Sequence record: MT764208.1
Strand: one strand, 5' to 3'
Length of the DNA stretch: 64,000 bases
DNA from: Escherichia phage JEP8
The position numbers and the translations under genes were made by a program. The stretch's first letter is position 1. The number at the start of each line of letters is the position of its first letter. The notes below the pieces were generated by a model. It saw only the letters and a list, made by a program, of their open reading frames with translations, was not told the origin of the DNA and did not search any database. This document shows, piece by piece, positions 4,508-48,202 of the stretch.

Positions 4508-4699
4508 TTATACAGCTTCGTAAACTTCCCAATGTCCAACACCAGCACGCTTAACGAAAAGGTTTTCTTTGATGTTATTCATAAACGTCTGGATGGATTT
4601 AATGCGGTTTGAAGGTTTCCATTCTTCGTTGGCATTGCGTCGATACATCATAACATTACCAGTTCGCTTATATTCAGCAACCATTTTAAGACCACACAT
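4508..4699 (-). CDS. hypothetical small protein (63 aa)
   Basis: ORF between family members; putative promoter 4751-4778 upstream. Confidence 0.4.
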   Translation of the reverse strand: MCGLKMVAEYKRTGNVMMYRRNANEEWKPSNRIKSIQTFMNNIKENLFVKRAGVGHWEVYEAV

Positions 4700-4750
4700 A
4701 ATATTATCCTCAATTTGTGGGAGAGTATTACCCCTCCCAATGATTGTTAT

Positions 4751-4778
4751 GTTATATCACACAAAATGGCGTGTCAAT
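4751..4778 (-). promoter_or_regulatory. putative early promoter TTGACA-N16-TATAAC
   Basis: weaker -10; upstream of 4508..4699. Confidence 0.35.
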
Positions 4779-5077
4779 GCTTCTTTTGCGGTTCCGCTAA
4801 GACTTTCGATCTCGCCTGGCATAACATCAACCGCCAGAACTTCTACAACATCCTCGGACCCTAACCAGTGAGTATGACCTTTGTAGAACTTGATAACCAG
4901 ACTACCTTCCTCGTCCCATTTAACGCTATCGCTAGCCCACCACACATCACCGTCGATAAAGTTGATGTAAAGCACACTACGCCACATTGAATTAATTACT
5001 TTCAATACTGCGCCTTTCATCTCTTCCACGGTATGGTCTTCCATTTTGAAGACCTCACCTACCTGAACTTTTGCCAT
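4757..5077 (-). CDS. hypothetical protein, paralog family member 6
   Basis: motif GHTHWLG...VLAVDV. Confidence 0.55.
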   Translation of the reverse strand: MAKVQVGEVFKMEDHTVEEMKGAVLKVINSMWRSVLYINFIDGDVWWASDSVKWDEEGSLVIKFYKGHTHWLGSEDVVEVLAVDVMPGEIESLSGTAKEALTRHFV

Positions 5078-5094
5078 TTAGTCACCTCTCTTTA

Positions 5095-5274
5095 TTACAT
5101 AACAATCACGCCAGCCGTTGAAAGTTGATGTTTCAACTGAGCATTTTCTGCTACCGTCAAATCAATGATTTCTTGTGACGCTGCAATCATATATCCATTG
5201 GTGATATTGTTTTGCATCAGTTCAATGGTTTCTTCGTTGTAGCGGATTTTAGCGATGATTTCGTTGAAGTTCAT
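5095..5274 (-). CDS. hypothetical 59-aa protein
   Basis: track ORF trimmed: N-terminal MLTGDHRSPIL is read-through of the promoter cassette; real start MNFNEII... after GGAGAATC. Confidence 0.45.
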   Translation of the reverse strand: MNFNEIIAKIRYNEETIELMQNNITNGYMIAASQEIIDLTVAENAQLKHQLSTAGVIVM

Positions 5275-5308
5275 GATTGATTCTCCTAGTTCGTTTCGGT
5301 ATGTGTGT

Positions 5309-5337
5309 AGTATAGGGGATCGGTGATCCCCTGTCAA
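5309..5337 (-). promoter_or_regulatory. early promoter TTGACA-N17-TATACT with palindromic spacer GGGGATCACCGATCCCC
   Basis: drives 5095..5274. Confidence 0.6.
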
Positions 5338-5345
5338 CAACTTTT

Positions 5346-5657
5346 TTAAAGTTTTTCCATGATAACGGTCATAATTACATCTTCTGCGCGAGCGGTCAGA
5401 TTATCAGCGTCAGCATGTGGGCGGTTGGTTGTTACAGAGATAACACCGTTGCGCACTGGTTTGATATTGATATCAAGATGATCCGCGAAACGTTCGCCAG
5501 TTACAGAATGAATTTTGGTGTTAAATTCTTTTGCCAGTGCCTTGCGAACTTCACGAATCAGGGTAGCGTTTTTCAGTTGGTTCTCCGCGCTCATGGTCTT
5601 CTGGGTGTTAATGGTTCCGTCGAAGTCAATCATTGGCAGCGTTACGATGTATTTCAT
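5346..5657 (-). CDS. hypothetical small early protein (103 aa)
   Basis: ORF with promoter cassette 5703-5731 and RBS. Confidence 0.5.
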   Translation of the reverse strand: MKYIVTLPMIDFDGTINTQKTMSAENQLKNATLIREVRKALAKEFNTKIHSVTGERFADHLDINIKPVRNGVISVTTNRPHADADNLTARAEDVIMTVIMEKL

Positions 5658-5702
5658 TTTTGATTCTCCGTTTAAGAAAGTGTGTTTCGTTTTGATGTGT
5701 GT

Positions 5703-5731
5703 AGTATAGGGGATACGTGATCCCCTGTCAA
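5703..5731 (-). promoter_or_regulatory. early promoter TTGACA-N17-TATACT with palindromic spacer GGGGATCACGTATCCCC
   Basis: drives 5346..5657. Confidence 0.6.
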
Positions 5732-5744
5732 CAACTTTTTTGAA

Positions 5745-6221
5745 TTATTTTTCTTGATGCTCGCGCTCGTACTTTTCGAAATAAAATTCTACTGGCTGGT
5801 CATGAATTGACAGCAAGCCAAAGCGTTTAGCCGCTCGCAATCCCATATTGCGCTGAATGTACTTCTGGAAGTTCTCGCGTATACACTTACGCCAGTATTC
5901 TAAGCCCATACAGCTTTTATAAAGATTGCATTGCACACACGCCGGATTCATGTTATCAAGTATATCATGCTCCGGTTTATGCATTCCTACGACCTTATAC
6001 TTCCACAATCCATCATCATTACGGGCAATTCGTCCATTTTCATCATAGACTACCTTTGAGCGTCGCAATACTGGTTTGATGTGGTCTGCGTGCCAGCGAT
6101 CCCCTAGTTCCTCGCCACAATAGGCACAACGTCCACCGTATTTCATTTTCAGGATCTGGCGTTGCTCTTTCTTTGACAATTTTTTAGGTTTAGGGGCTTT
6201 CGCCCCTTCATTATCACACAT
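5745..6221 (-). CDS. HNH-family endonuclease (free-standing)
   Basis: C-x2-C ... H-A-D-H-I-K-P ... C-V-Q-C-N signature; directly downstream of ligase; true start may be internal Met (MKYGGR...). Confidence 0.6.
   Translation of the reverse strand: MCDNEGAKAPKPKKLSKKEQRQILKMKYGGRCAYCGEELGDRWHADHIKPVLRRSKVVYDENGRIARNDDGLWKYKVVGMHKPEHDILDNMNPACVQCNLYKSCMGLEYWRKCIRENFQKYIQRNMGLRAAKRFGLLSIHDQPVEFYFEKYEREHQEK
6192..6207 (-). promoter_or_regulatory. RNA stem-loop GGGGCGAAAGCCCC (GAAA tetraloop) at the ligase 3' end
   Basis: same element as at 18921-18936 and 31041-31056. Confidence 0.45.
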
Positions 6222-44895: not shown

Positions 44896-45897
44896 TTAGT
44901 AATGGCTAAACCCTTCGGTCACATCTTCAACCACATAGTAACGATGACAGCGCATTTTGGCATTCGCATAATCTTTCGGGATACTTACAACGTGACGCGG
45001 ATCAACTTTACATTTAATGATTCGGCCTCGTCCACCGCCATAGTGCGGAATATAGTGTTTCGCTGCAACGTGGAGGCCATTAGAGCAAGTGCGATCATCA
45101 TCCGGGTCCACGTCTTTACGCTTCATTTTAACCGTGCGACCTGGGCTATTATCAAACGTATGCGTAAAGAAATCTTTATAATCAACATCAACACGTTTCC
45201 ATGCATAGAAACAACCATCTTCCACGATCTCAATGTCGTTGTGCTCTAAGAAGTCAAACAGACGATCTACGGCCTTACGGCTAGGGTTTTTCTTGCACTT
45301 CTCAAAGAAGTTCAGATAGTGCGTATATGGCTTATTCTCTTTAATCGACTCCACAACTCGACGAGTCAGATTATTATCAAGAACAATATTATGATAATAC
45401 ACAATACCATTTTCGATACGGAAAGCGCCGTGATAATATACTTCAACCGCTTTCTTAATGTCAATCAGCGTAATAGCTTTGATGAAATCATTATGTTTAA
45501 TCGCTTCCAGTGCTTCATTAAAGTTAACATGCGACGGATCAGCAGTATAAACAATGTCACCACATGTAATAGTAATAAACTTAGTTGAGGCTATTGCTAC
45601 GATTTTTGAGGAAGTAGTCACGGGCTTTTTTGCGCGTTCACCGCCTTTTCCTTTACTGGTTTTACGGCGTGCTTTACGTTTTTCTAGTGCCTTGCGACCT
45701 TCCGCTACTGCGTCTTTCTGAATCAGTAATACACGGGAGGCAGTACGACGAGATACCCCAAATGCTGCCGCAAGTGCTTCGCGGGTAGTAAACTTACCTT
45801 CGCCCCACTGTTTAGCCAGTTTGATTTGTTTTTCAGAATCCAGGCATTGAACGTTACGGTCAGAGACGGTGATTTTTGCTTTAGTCATAGTATTCAT
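44896..45897 (-). CDS. rIIB: rIIB protein
   Basis: KAVDRLFDFL...DIEI.EDG.FYAWK, TFDNSPG..VKM, HPR.VVSIP.DY..AKMR...Y.VVEDVTE match T4 rIIB. Confidence 0.92.
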   Translation of the reverse strand: MNTMTKAKITVSDRNVQCLDSEKQIKLAKQWGEGKFTTREALAAAFGVSRRTASRVLLIQKDAVAEGRKALEKRKARRKTSKGKGGERAKKPVTTSSKIVAIASTKFITITCGDIVYTADPSHVNFNEALEAIKHNDFIKAITLIDIKKAVEVYYHGAFRIENGIVYYHNIVLDNNLTRRVVESIKENKPYTHYLNFFEKCKKNPSRKAVDRLFDFLEHNDIEIVEDGCFYAWKRVDVDYKDFFTHTFDNSPGRTVKMKRKDVDPDDDRTCSNGLHVAAKHYIPHYGGGRGRIIKCKVDPRHVVSIPKDYANAKMRCHRYYVVEDVTEGFSHY

Positions 45898-45949
45898 TCC
45901 TCTATTAGTTGGGCGACTATCGCCGCCCGATTCACATCATTATACCAGA

Positions 45950-46081
45950 ATTATTTTGCTTCTACAACCTTGCGGATTGTGCGGTCTGATACATTATAGA
46001 TTCGTGCCAGTTCGCCTTTAGTCAAGCCGCGAGCGTATTGTTTACGGATGGTTTCTTTCTGGATAGCGGTCAGTTTAGTCA
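45950..46081 (-). CDS. 43-aa helix-turn-helix micro-protein (MTKLTAIQKETIRKQYARGLTKGELARIYNVSDRTIRKVVEAK)
   Basis: hand-translated; GAGGTGA RBS 5 nt upstream; resembles the N-terminal HTH of rIIB. Confidence 0.5.
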
Positions 46082-46093
46082 TAATATCACCTC

Positions 46094-48202
46094 TTAAAAT
46101 TTAACATTCTTAACCAGTTTCATAAAGTCTTGTGCGCGTTTGTCGTTATGCAGAATACGATACCAGTTATCTACAATATCATACAGTAACGGGCTATTCT
46201 CTTTAAACTTCGCACAAACTGCTTTAATTCGTTCGTTTGCTGCCGTGAATTTTTCATCACAGATCTTTTTAGTTTCTTCGTCCATAATCCAACGAGTAAT
46301 AAGGAGTAACTTGGAAACCTCTTTATTATAATGACGACCGTACAGTCTGTCAATAAATTCTGGAATACAGCGTTCTAATTCATCGTCATGAAACAACATA
46401 GTGATCACACCCAGATATTCGCCATACCCCAGATGATTGGTCTTAACCTTCTTAGCCAGACCAGCCAGCTTACCGCGAACAAATTCTAGCGCACATTCCA
46501 ATTGTTCGTCAACGAGATATTTTTGTGTCTCGTTACGGGTAATAATATACTTTGTTACCCCGAAGTAGTCAAGCGCCGTGTGTAATGTATTTTCATTATA
46601 GATCGATTGACGGCTACGGCTTTCGAATGCATCACCCACGCGGAACATGTGCAAGCCTGATAACTCGCGAATCTCTGCCGCTTTCATGTGATGGCTGGTT
46701 TTATGCCAACTGTCACCAATCTTTTCCATGATATACACGTTAGGCAGCTTGGGAGTAGCTTCACGTTGTGTACGCTCGGTCTTCTCCGGCTTAACTGCTT
46801 TAGCACGCAGATCATCGGCCTCTGATACCTTAATCACGGTCATTTCAGAATCATCATAATACTGTTTGATGTACTCGAAAGTCTCCATATGTTTTTCGTT
46901 GCGCTGACGGAACACAAGTACCTTTTTATTGATGCCGTATTCCTGGACCATGCCGTTAAGAGTCAGTGCACGCAGTTTCGGTTTATCGGTATCATCAATA
47001 AGACACGTAATATCTTCTTTATGCATCCATACAAAATGCGTAATGTTGTATTGACTGCTAACGAAAGCAGGGCGCAATTTACTGATTGTGTGACGAGTAC
47101 GATACAGAGTATACACCTGACCTTCTACGTCGTTAGGCGAATCTTTACCCGCATTCACAAACTTATTATAGATTGCTACCGGATCATCCCACTTCCCGAT
47201 CTTACCCATCTTGCTAATAATATTGCGTTGAGTCGATGAATACTCGCTCATAAATTGCGCAAGTTTACGCTCTGTTTTAATGTTGGCGATCTTTTCTTTA
47301 ACCTTTTCCAACATCATTTCATTGATTTCTGCAATACGTTTTTCGATGTTTGCTTTAGTCTCAATTGACAAGTGAACTTCTTCACGCGATGGCATCAGGT
47401 CCAGATCACCCAACTCAAAATTAATGTAAATGGTCTGGTGCTGGCGGTTTACAGCTTCTAACCATGTTCCGCGAACATATTCATACGGGATCGGATACTG
47501 AATCTTACCCATGATTGCATATACTACATAGGAATCGTTATCACGCCCATTGCAAACATAATAATTATCAAAGCTAGGGAAATAATTAATTTCGATTGCA
47601 TTGATATTAGGTTTGTGTTCCCCAAAATGACGCAGTACAAATTGCGCTTCTCGATGCCATGTCTGAATATCTTTTTCTTTCACCGGAATAGTGATTTTCA
47701 GACCATTGTCTTCATAGGTCGGTTCGTCGAAAATCTGCACCATTTTCGGCATAGAGTTTTGCACAAATGCCGTAAAGCCATAAGCGCGACCATTGTAATA
47801 GTTTACGATTGTAAAGGTGTCAGTGTAGCTATAAGCAGATTTCGCACCTAAACCAAAAGATCCGATATAATCATTAGTTTGGTCTTTTGTTGATTCAAAG
47901 TAAACCGTAAACAGTTGTTCTAATTCTTTCTTAGACGGAATACCCGTACCATAATCACGCACAGAGAAATAAGGTTCAATTGCGGTAGGCAAATGAATAT
48001 CAAACGGACGATCTAAGGTTCCGGCTTCTTTGTGAGTGTCGGTAGCATTGCACGAATACTCACGGACGCAAGCACGTTCACAATATTGATAAGTGTTCTT
48101 AGAAAGCACCATAAAAGCCTTGCTACTTGCTTTCAGTGAAAAATCAACCGCACCGCTCAAGTCACTGCCAAATACTTCTTCATTATCAATATGCATTTTC
48201 AT
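46094..48202 (-). CDS. rIIA: rIIA protein
   Basis: 702 aa (T4 rIIA 725); N-terminal GHKL-ATPase-like motifs (DYGTGIP, GSFGLGAKSAY); upstream of rIIB. Confidence 0.9.
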   Translation of the reverse strand: MKMHIDNEEVFGSDLSGAVDFSLKASSKAFMVLSKNTYQYCERACVREYSCNATDTHKEAGTLDRPFDIHLPTAIEPYFSVRDYGTGIPSKKELEQLFTVYFESTKDQTNDYIGSFGLGAKSAYSYTDTFTIVNYYNGRAYGFTAFVQNSMPKMVQIFDEPTYEDNGLKITIPVKEKDIQTWHREAQFVLRHFGEHKPNINAIEINYFPSFDNYYVCNGRDNDSYVVYAIMGKIQYPIPYEYVRGTWLEAVNRQHQTIYINFELGDLDLMPSREEVHLSIETKANIEKRIAEINEMMLEKVKEKIANIKTERKLAQFMSEYSSTQRNIISKMGKIGKWDDPVAIYNKFVNAGKDSPNDVEGQVYTLYRTRHTISKLRPAFVSSQYNITHFVWMHKEDITCLIDDTDKPKLRALTLNGMVQEYGINKKVLVFRQRNEKHMETFEYIKQYYDDSEMTVIKVSEADDLRAKAVKPEKTERTQREATPKLPNVYIMEKIGDSWHKTSHHMKAAEIRELSGLHMFRVGDAFESRSRQSIYNENTLHTALDYFGVTKYIITRNETQKYLVDEQLECALEFVRGKLAGLAKKVKTNHLGYGEYLGVITMLFHDDELERCIPEFIDRLYGRHYNKEVSKLLLITRWIMDEETKKICDEKFTAANERIKAVCAKFKENSPLLYDIVDNWYRILHNDKRAQDFMKLVKNVKF

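Follow-up and report, generated by a model that had tools for sequence, protein, structure and literature searches.

About seventy years have passed since Benzer, and to our knowledge it is still not understood what rIIA and rIIB do at the molecular level. The description of rII as 'widespread yet poorly understood' is found in a CRISPRi study of 2025 (PMC11879866), and RIIB is treated as a putative transcription factor in a review (PMC7824862). The part of RIIB that concerns us here is the helix-turn-helix (HTH) at its N-terminus, which in T4-like phages (Pfam PF26926 proteins; the classical 'B1' segment of T4) is fused to the RIIB core. In a survey of 80 IMG/VR rIIB loci together with annotated phages, nearly all rIIB genes of the Tevenvirinae type had exactly one such HTH, N-terminal and in frame. 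The window analysed here, 64,000 nucleotides of Escherichia phage JEP8 (MT764208.1), differs in that a free HTH is encoded between rIIA and rIIB by a micro gene, and that this free HTH coexists with a second, divergent one attached to RIIB. The micro protein has the motif L[ST]xxQKxxI...G.TK.ELA..Y.VS..TIR.V in common with the N-terminal HTH of T4-like RIIB. It also shares class and predicted fold with the CENP-B_N, psq, HTH_23-28 and resolvase HTH_7 domains of transposases, recombinases and homing endonucleases, but while each of these is joined to another domain, catalytic or oligomerising, the micro HTH is the whole protein and has no nuclease or transposase adjacent to it.

The rII locus of JEP8

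The micro gene lies at 45951..46082 on the minus strand, stop included, and has 43 codons that end in its own TAA. It was identified as an open reading frame and by its matches to phrog_15481 and Pfam, and the translation (MTKLTAIQKETIRKQYARGLTKGELARIYNVSDRTIRKVVEAK, 43 aa) is predicted to be a minimal three-helix HTH. An earlier note on this DNA had placed a 43-aa ORF at 45950-46081 and gave no strand; the ORF exists, while the coordinates were one base off. The strong ribosome binding site claimed for it, GAGGTGA, is found at 46093..46087 (minus strand), where it directly follows the end of rIIA and is separated from the micro-gene ATG by 4 nt. The stop of rIIA is a TAA at 46096..46094 on the same strand, so that the micro-gene ATG is 11 nt downstream of the end of rIIA, a spacing which suggests that the two genes are coupled in their expression.

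The upstream neighbour rIIA (46094..48202, minus strand, 702 aa) matches phrog_612 with E=9e-188 and gives weak GHKL ATPase matches in the domain search. Downstream, rIIB occupies 44896..45888 on the minus strand and matches phrog_609 with E=2e-106; its annotated start, the ATG at 45888, gives a protein of 330 aa. The micro gene and rIIB are separated by a spacer of 62 nt and are read in different frames. A fusion of the two by read-through or frameshifting was considered and is ruled out by the difference in frame, the spacer and the intervening stop codons; the micro protein is a separate ORF, and not a part of a RIIB polypeptide in which the HTH is fused to the PF26926 core. The longest rIIB ORF begins further upstream, with an ATG at 45897 (MNTMTKAK...) that abuts the Shine-Dalgarno sequence GAGGAA. 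The ATG at 45888, used in the GenBank annotations, is the likely start of rIIB because it has a proper spacing to GAGGAA, unlike the one at 45897.

JEP8 is itself an RB49-like phage (Krischvirus). Over 1.6 kb, the region has 97-99% identity with 58 GenBank records, every one a Krischvirus (RB49, JSE, Phi1, kaaroe, KFS-EC and others), and in the annotated records the ORF is listed as a "hypothetical protein", for example EpJSE_00277 (YP_002922349.1) in JSE and kaaroe_171 (QHR66207.1). The micro protein is a member of phrog_15481, a PHROG without assigned function, which it matches over 43 of 43 positions (E=3e-34); it is identical or nearly so in all Krischvirus genomes, and there is no difference that would set it apart from this family. 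Since it is annotated in Krischvirus records and has its own PHROG, the gene call itself is not new. In literature searches on rIIB and HTH, on RB49 and rIIB, and on r1589, we found no paper that names the ORF or links it to rIIB. What is new is its recognition as a free-standing HTH of the rIIB type, the three-cistron rII locus of this clade and the amplification of the HTH module in rIIB. Overall, it is a modest variant of the rII locus.

Conservation of the micro gene

A very short ORF that is annotated only as a hypothetical protein could be a non-functional remnant or a chance ORF, for instance what is left of the 5' end of an rIIB gene that was replaced. The relatives show the opposite of a chance ORF. 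In a tblastn search it is intact in 58 of 58 Krischvirus records, in 53 of them at an identity of at least 99% and in the other 5 at 95-99%. A search of 5.8 billion proteins gave relatives (P0001-P0005) that are all 43 aa long and 69-98% identical to it in local BLASTP alignments, and the order on their contigs is rIIA, micro gene and rIIB throughout. Five further metagenomic lineages (L008, L009/L010, L011/L012, L013 and L094/L095) have a micro ORF of 43-45 aa, with 45 aa in L094/L095. This length and the ORF's own ribosome binding site are kept across lineage pairs in which the amino acid identity of rIIA is 35-46%.

Compared with the window, the micro protein is 77-86% identical in the other lineages and 73% in L008 (global alignment), where the corresponding amino acid identities are 67% for the topoisomerase subunit gp52, 55% for rIIB and 39% for rIIA. 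No other gene of the locus is as well conserved as the micro gene, the topoisomerase gene included. Its differences between the window and L011 are 21.2 synonymous and 8.8 non-synonymous (dN/dS about 0.05), and between L011 and L013 14.5 and 1.5 (dN/dS about 0.02); dN/dS between the window and L008 is 0.33. Synonymous sites are near saturation. The micro ORF is a genuine gene under strong purifying selection, and a chance ORF or a decaying remnant is excluded by the conservation and by the pattern of synonymous and non-synonymous differences. Together with a confident fold prediction (see below), this makes the remnant explanation exceedingly improbable.

Position, promoters and hairpins

In all six lineages the micro gene begins 4-11 nt past the rIIA stop, and the gaps of L009, L011 and L094 have GAGGT(G/A)A-type sites. 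Elsewhere it is rIIB that follows rIIA at such a distance: from the rIIA stop to the rIIB ATG there are 11 nt in the T4-type L026, 14 nt in Bp7, 0 in Jiaodavirus and -1 in Slopekvirus. The statement in the earlier note that the two are directly adjacent in T4 is thus roughly right, and the comparison of the junction across T4-like phages, which was also called for there, shows that the micro gene occupies the position of the rIIB start (4-11 versus -1 to 14 nt). The rIIB gene of the Krischvirus clade is itself set apart by a spacer of 52-70 nt.

A promoter scan found a perfect sigma-70 consensus promoter, TTGACA-17-TATAAT with 12 of 12 positions, at 46325..46353 on the minus strand, inside the 3' part of rIIA. 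It starts 271 nt upstream of the micro-gene ATG and is a candidate promoter, either of the micro gene alone or of the micro gene and rIIB together. Near-consensus promoters are present 223-261 nt upstream of the micro gene in relatives (12/12 in L094, 11/12 in L011 and 10/12 in L009), at a similar distance, the rIIA of these three being about 40% identical. In T4, rIIB has middle promoters that lie distally within rIIA, and on this comparison the micro gene would also take the place of the rIIB 5' end in transcription.

Another promoter-like element with an extended -10, TTGTAG-17-TGgTATAAT, overlaps the last codons of the micro gene (45938..45966, minus strand) and is a candidate promoter for rIIB; it was read by eye, its -35 hexamer being too weak for the promoter scan. 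The same motif occurs in L008, and sigma-70 promoters are found at its place in L009 (11/12) and L011 (12/12). The spacer that follows has a GC-rich hairpin, GGGCG-8-CGCCC, which is extendable and has no U-tract (45911..45928, minus strand). Hairpins with different stem sequences are found in the same spacer of L008 (at about 4631-4651), L094, L009, L012 and L013; examples of the stems are GGGCGGC/GTCGCCC, GCGCCC/GGGCGC and ACGTCCTGA/TCAGGACGT, and none has a U-tract. The hairpin could be an element for stability or processing of the mRNA, or an attenuator. The spacer hairpin of L009 and L012 carries in its loop the -10 hexamer of a promoter that is close to consensus.

Fold and class of the micro protein

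That the peptide is HTH-like, as the earlier note had it, is confirmed by domain searches and by structure prediction. The Pfam family CENP-B_N (PF04218) matches with 26.0 bits against a gathering cut-off of 21.2 (E=7e-6), while Sigma70_r4 (21.1 against 24.1), Mor (17.6 against 24.9) and Phage_antitermQ (15.4 against 26) are below theirs, and so are HTH_28, HTH_7 and others. AlphaFold2, run on an alignment of six family sequences, gave a three-helix model with a pLDDT of 90.7 and helices at residues 6-18, 22-28 and 33-41; recognition is predicted to be by helix 3, VSDRTIRKVV. The best matches to the model in a Foldseek search of the PDB are DNA-bound HTHs, those of IstA transposase, CENP-B(1-129), gamma-delta resolvase and NarL/LuxR, with E-values that are not significant, as is expected for 43 residues. 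The predicted fold superposes on the N-terminal HTH of IstA with an rmsd of 1.0 Å over 38 residues and on that of CENP-B with 1.6 Å, and TM is about 0.78-0.79 for the two. PDB sequence searches with the micro family gave no significant match. According to its model, the micro protein is an HTH of the trihelical class and nothing more. As a monomeric HTH of 43 aa that lacks a dimerisation element, it may by itself be a poor binder of DNA.

Relationship to the HTH of RIIB

The earlier note saw in the peptide a parallel to the N-terminal HTH of rIIB, and this turned out to be true for the canonical rIIB of other genera and not for the neighbour in the same phage. A BLASTP comparison of the micro protein with the window's own RIIB gave no alignment (E=26), an alignment guided by the HMM has 11 of 41 positions identical, and among 189 HTH modules of the class the HTH of the own RIIB has rank 176 in similarity to the micro family. 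Judged from these alignments, the likeness within the phage is generic HTH similarity. In a tblastn search of 50,697 phage records, on the other hand, the best matches after Krischvirus are the first approximately 40 codons of rIIB, in Jiaodavirus (52.5% identity), Slopekvirus, Karamvirus CC31, Winklervirus X20 and Dhakavirus Bp7. With BLASTP, the micro protein is 53% identical to Jiaodavirus RIIB over 40 aa (RIIB residues 3-42, E=1e-8), and when the micro family was compared with the rIIB alignment by hhalign, the probability was 97% on the HTH columns (E=8e-11).

We also built an HMM of the rIIB HTH from 40 distinct rIIB N-termini, taken only from phages other than Krischvirus. The micro family scores 45-48 bits against it (46.6 for the copy in the window), which can be compared with 47-48 bits for the canonical rIIBs of L096 and L098, which were outside the training set, and 26-37 bits for the attached HTHs of the Krischvirus clade. 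The best module among the 149 best generic proteins has 42.7 bits, a small margin to the micro family. In the six-frame translation of the 64-kb window this HMM has two matches only, which are adjacent to each other: the micro gene with 46.6 and the N-terminus of rIIB with 31.3 bits.

The free and the attached copy have kept different parts of the canonical rIIB HTH. The micro protein starts with a generic 'KLT' where 'V-K-C-L' is typical of rIIB HTHs, and the attached HTH of the clade keeps the rIIB-typical 'V-x-C-L' start. In helix 2 and helix 3 the free copy has the canonical ELAxxYxVSxxTIRxV, and the attached copy GVSRRTASRVL. The residues A40, S46, T49 and R52, near-invariant in rIIB HTHs, correspond to A26, S32, T35 and K38 of the micro protein when the alignments are read by eye, and K38 is an R in P0005. 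From the sequence and profile comparisons taken together, the micro protein appears to be homologous to the canonical N-terminal HTHs of rIIB in other genera.

Distribution and origin

A separate HTH ORF at the rII locus was found in the survey only in Krischvirus and its metagenomic relatives. There, the free HTH is present together with an attached RIIB HTH that is displaced and divergent, or multiplied. The latter is the case in L008 (ENA ERZ27260015 k141_60519), where a RIIB of 459 aa (4685-6064) has three tandem N-terminal copies of the HTH, each about 43 aa long and with a V(K/R/Q)C(V/L) start, and where a free 43-aa HTH gene is present upstream as well. With three fused HTHs and a free one, the module has demonstrably been amplified at this locus. 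L096 and L098, sister lineages with the synteny gp39-rIIA-rIIB-gp52, are without the micro gene and have one canonical HTH at the extreme N-terminus of RIIB. The closest free HTH, P0133, was tried as an rII-associated relative, and its genomic context is not an rII locus; it therefore gives no support for a wider family of free HTHs associated with rII.

The likeliest origin, which we regard as plausible, would be an amplification of the HTH-coding 5' end of rIIB followed by the separation of its first copy. The 5' end would have been amplified as in the fused copies of L008, a stop codon, a promoter and a hairpin would then have split the first copy from the rest, and the free copy would have kept the canonical helix 2 and helix 3 while the copy attached to RIIB drifted. 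Tandem duplication and fission is the most economical explanation, as it accounts for the adjacency of the two HTHs, the position of the micro gene, its match to the rIIB profile and the amplified HTHs of L008. The attached HTHs of the clade have other rIIB HTHs as their nearest relatives, which makes them the vertical descendants. A recent local duplication from the neighbouring rIIB HTH was rejected, being ruled out by the absent BLASTP alignment with the own RIIB. The proposal in the earlier note of a duplicated and detached module thus agrees with the data as far as the kind of HTH, its place at the rIIB start and the amplification in L008 are concerned, and finds no support if the module is meant as a copy of the HTH next to it, which is very divergent, or as clearly preferable to the capture of a generic HTH.

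Capture is kept as an alternative origin because some generic modules rank before the best rIIB in similarity to the micro family. Among 1.84 billion representative proteins, a profile search gave 304 matches, and the top is dominated by proteins with 4-7 tandem HTH repeats; since scores are summed over the repeats, the modules were scored again per domain, and rIIB is not singled out by this search. In per-domain scores with the micro-family HMM and in pairwise scores, about 13-18 generic modules come ahead of the best rIIB, that of Jiaodavirus, which has rank 14-20. The nearest modules belong to HNH_3 and GIY-YIG homing endonucleases (P0024, P0042, P0100, P0108, P0075), in which they form the C-terminal HTH, or are free HTHs of 49-56 aa. 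The rankings disagree, as the rIIB-HTH HMM puts the micro family above all generic modules and the micro-family HMM and pairwise scores do not, and the approximately 41 alignable positions are too few for a decisive tree of HTHs. The ORF gave no HNH or GIY-YIG match, and as the micro gene starts so close to the rIIA stop there is no room for a nuclease remnant in any of the lineages.

Function and alternative explanations

The AlphaFold2 model of the window's RIIB (mean pLDDT 84.5) has the HTH at about residues 13-56, with helices 18-29, 36-43 and 47-56, then a long helix, a disordered and very basic linker at 79-93 (KTSKGKGGERAKKPV) and a core at 96-330. In this model, the HTH is a tethered binding module separate from the core. 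Foldseek gave no meaningful fold match in the PDB for the core model, and a PDB sequence search with rIIB gave nothing significant and no RIIB structure.

The micro gene is probably an early gene of the rII locus. We hypothesize, with our confidence evenly divided for and against, that its product is a trans-acting accessory of RIIA/RIIB, a free counterpart of the RIIB HTH. It would be made together with RIIA, from the rIIA promoter and from the internal promoter in the 3' end of rIIA, with its translation probably coupled to that of rIIA, and would supply in trans the contact to nucleic acid or to a partner that is made by the tethered RIIB HTH in other phages. The contact would most likely be to DNA, with helix 3 as the recognition helix, and the same kind of contact is to be expected since A26, S32, T35 and K38 correspond to the near-invariant residues of the rIIB HTH. 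The micro protein would then be an accessory of the RIIA/RIIB system, and not an independent enzyme. In T4, the genetics of r1589 and the B1 segment has shown that growth on K(lambda) is largely possible without the N-terminal part of RIIB. An r1589-like fusion is reported to be hypomorphic against plasmid-borne RexAB (BASEL paper). Taken together, a contribution related to Rex may therefore be small, and the role of the HTH module may be accessory or belong to a different condition.

A stronger version is that RB49 and the other Krischvirus phages have a three-component rII, where the free HTH, derived by fission of an amplified RIIB N-terminus, is the obligatory trans-acting subunit for DNA binding or target recognition of a complex of RIIA (the GHKL ATPase) and RIIB. 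We consider this unlikely. It is nevertheless of interest, because if it were true, the free HTH would show to what the 'B1' segment of RIIB binds and open a way into the mechanism of rII. The micro protein could instead be a small regulator in its own right, binding DNA so as to repress or activate early genes or to control its own gene through the promoter at the 3' end of the latter, and its HTH would have been captured and inserted beside rIIB; this would amount to an ordinary improvement in the annotation of a hypothetical protein. An HTH taken from the pool of 'KLT...YNVS..TIR' modules fits the nearest neighbours found among the endonuclease and free HTHs, P0133 is an example of a free HTH away from rII, promoter-like elements flank the micro gene, and there are weak Pfam and PHROG matches to Mor and late activators, sigma-70 region 4 and antiterminator Q. 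These matches to regulator families are all under the curated thresholds, however, and the start 4-11 nt past the rIIA stop is the same everywhere and no nuclease remnant fits. Random insertion would hardly have placed the only two such HTHs of 64 kb next to each other, and against the rIIB-HTH profile the micro family scores no worse than genuine rIIB HTHs from outside the training set. We regard such a regulator as possible but rather doubtful.

The two HTHs could also share a DNA or protein target, with the micro protein as a competitor or decoy that tunes or antagonises RIIB, in a dominant-negative way or against a defence. It is of the same HTH class as the rIIB module, is found at the same locus and is highly conserved. 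The divergence of the attached and the free copy in the recognition helix can be read as part of such a relationship, but it argues rather for different targets than for competition, and we find a decoy quite unlikely. The interest of the locus is that RIIB has a modular HTH as its N-terminal segment, which can be amplified to three copies, as in L008, and exist as a separate, very strongly conserved gene in Krischvirus and its relatives. It is a natural 'domain-in-trans' system for asking what the HTH binds, and whether it acts together with RIIA/RIIB.

Minor variants

Some records resemble the arrangement described here or deviate from it. A 32-aa database protein, P0039 (MTKLTAIQKETIRFHFSRGLTKCDVSRMYNFS), agrees with the micro protein over its first 13 residues and then diverges; it comes from a short contig and is probably a copy that is truncated or has errors. 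In the Karamvirus-like L062 (21-975, IMGVR_UViG_2700989062_000001), rIIB is split into an ORF of 86 aa with the HTH and an ORF of 271 aa with the core. It was tried as a second case of a detached HTH and rejected, as the split is a frameshift within rIIB; it is the result of an rII mutant stock or a sequencing error, and not a natural detached module. In L096 (3918-4000) and L098 (3914-4000), the spacer between rIIA and rIIB is 83-87 nt long and contains a terminator-like hairpin with a UUCG loop and a T-run, followed by a -10 element, TGTATAAT or TATATAAT. Transcription of the rII cistrons is therefore separate in these lineages as well.
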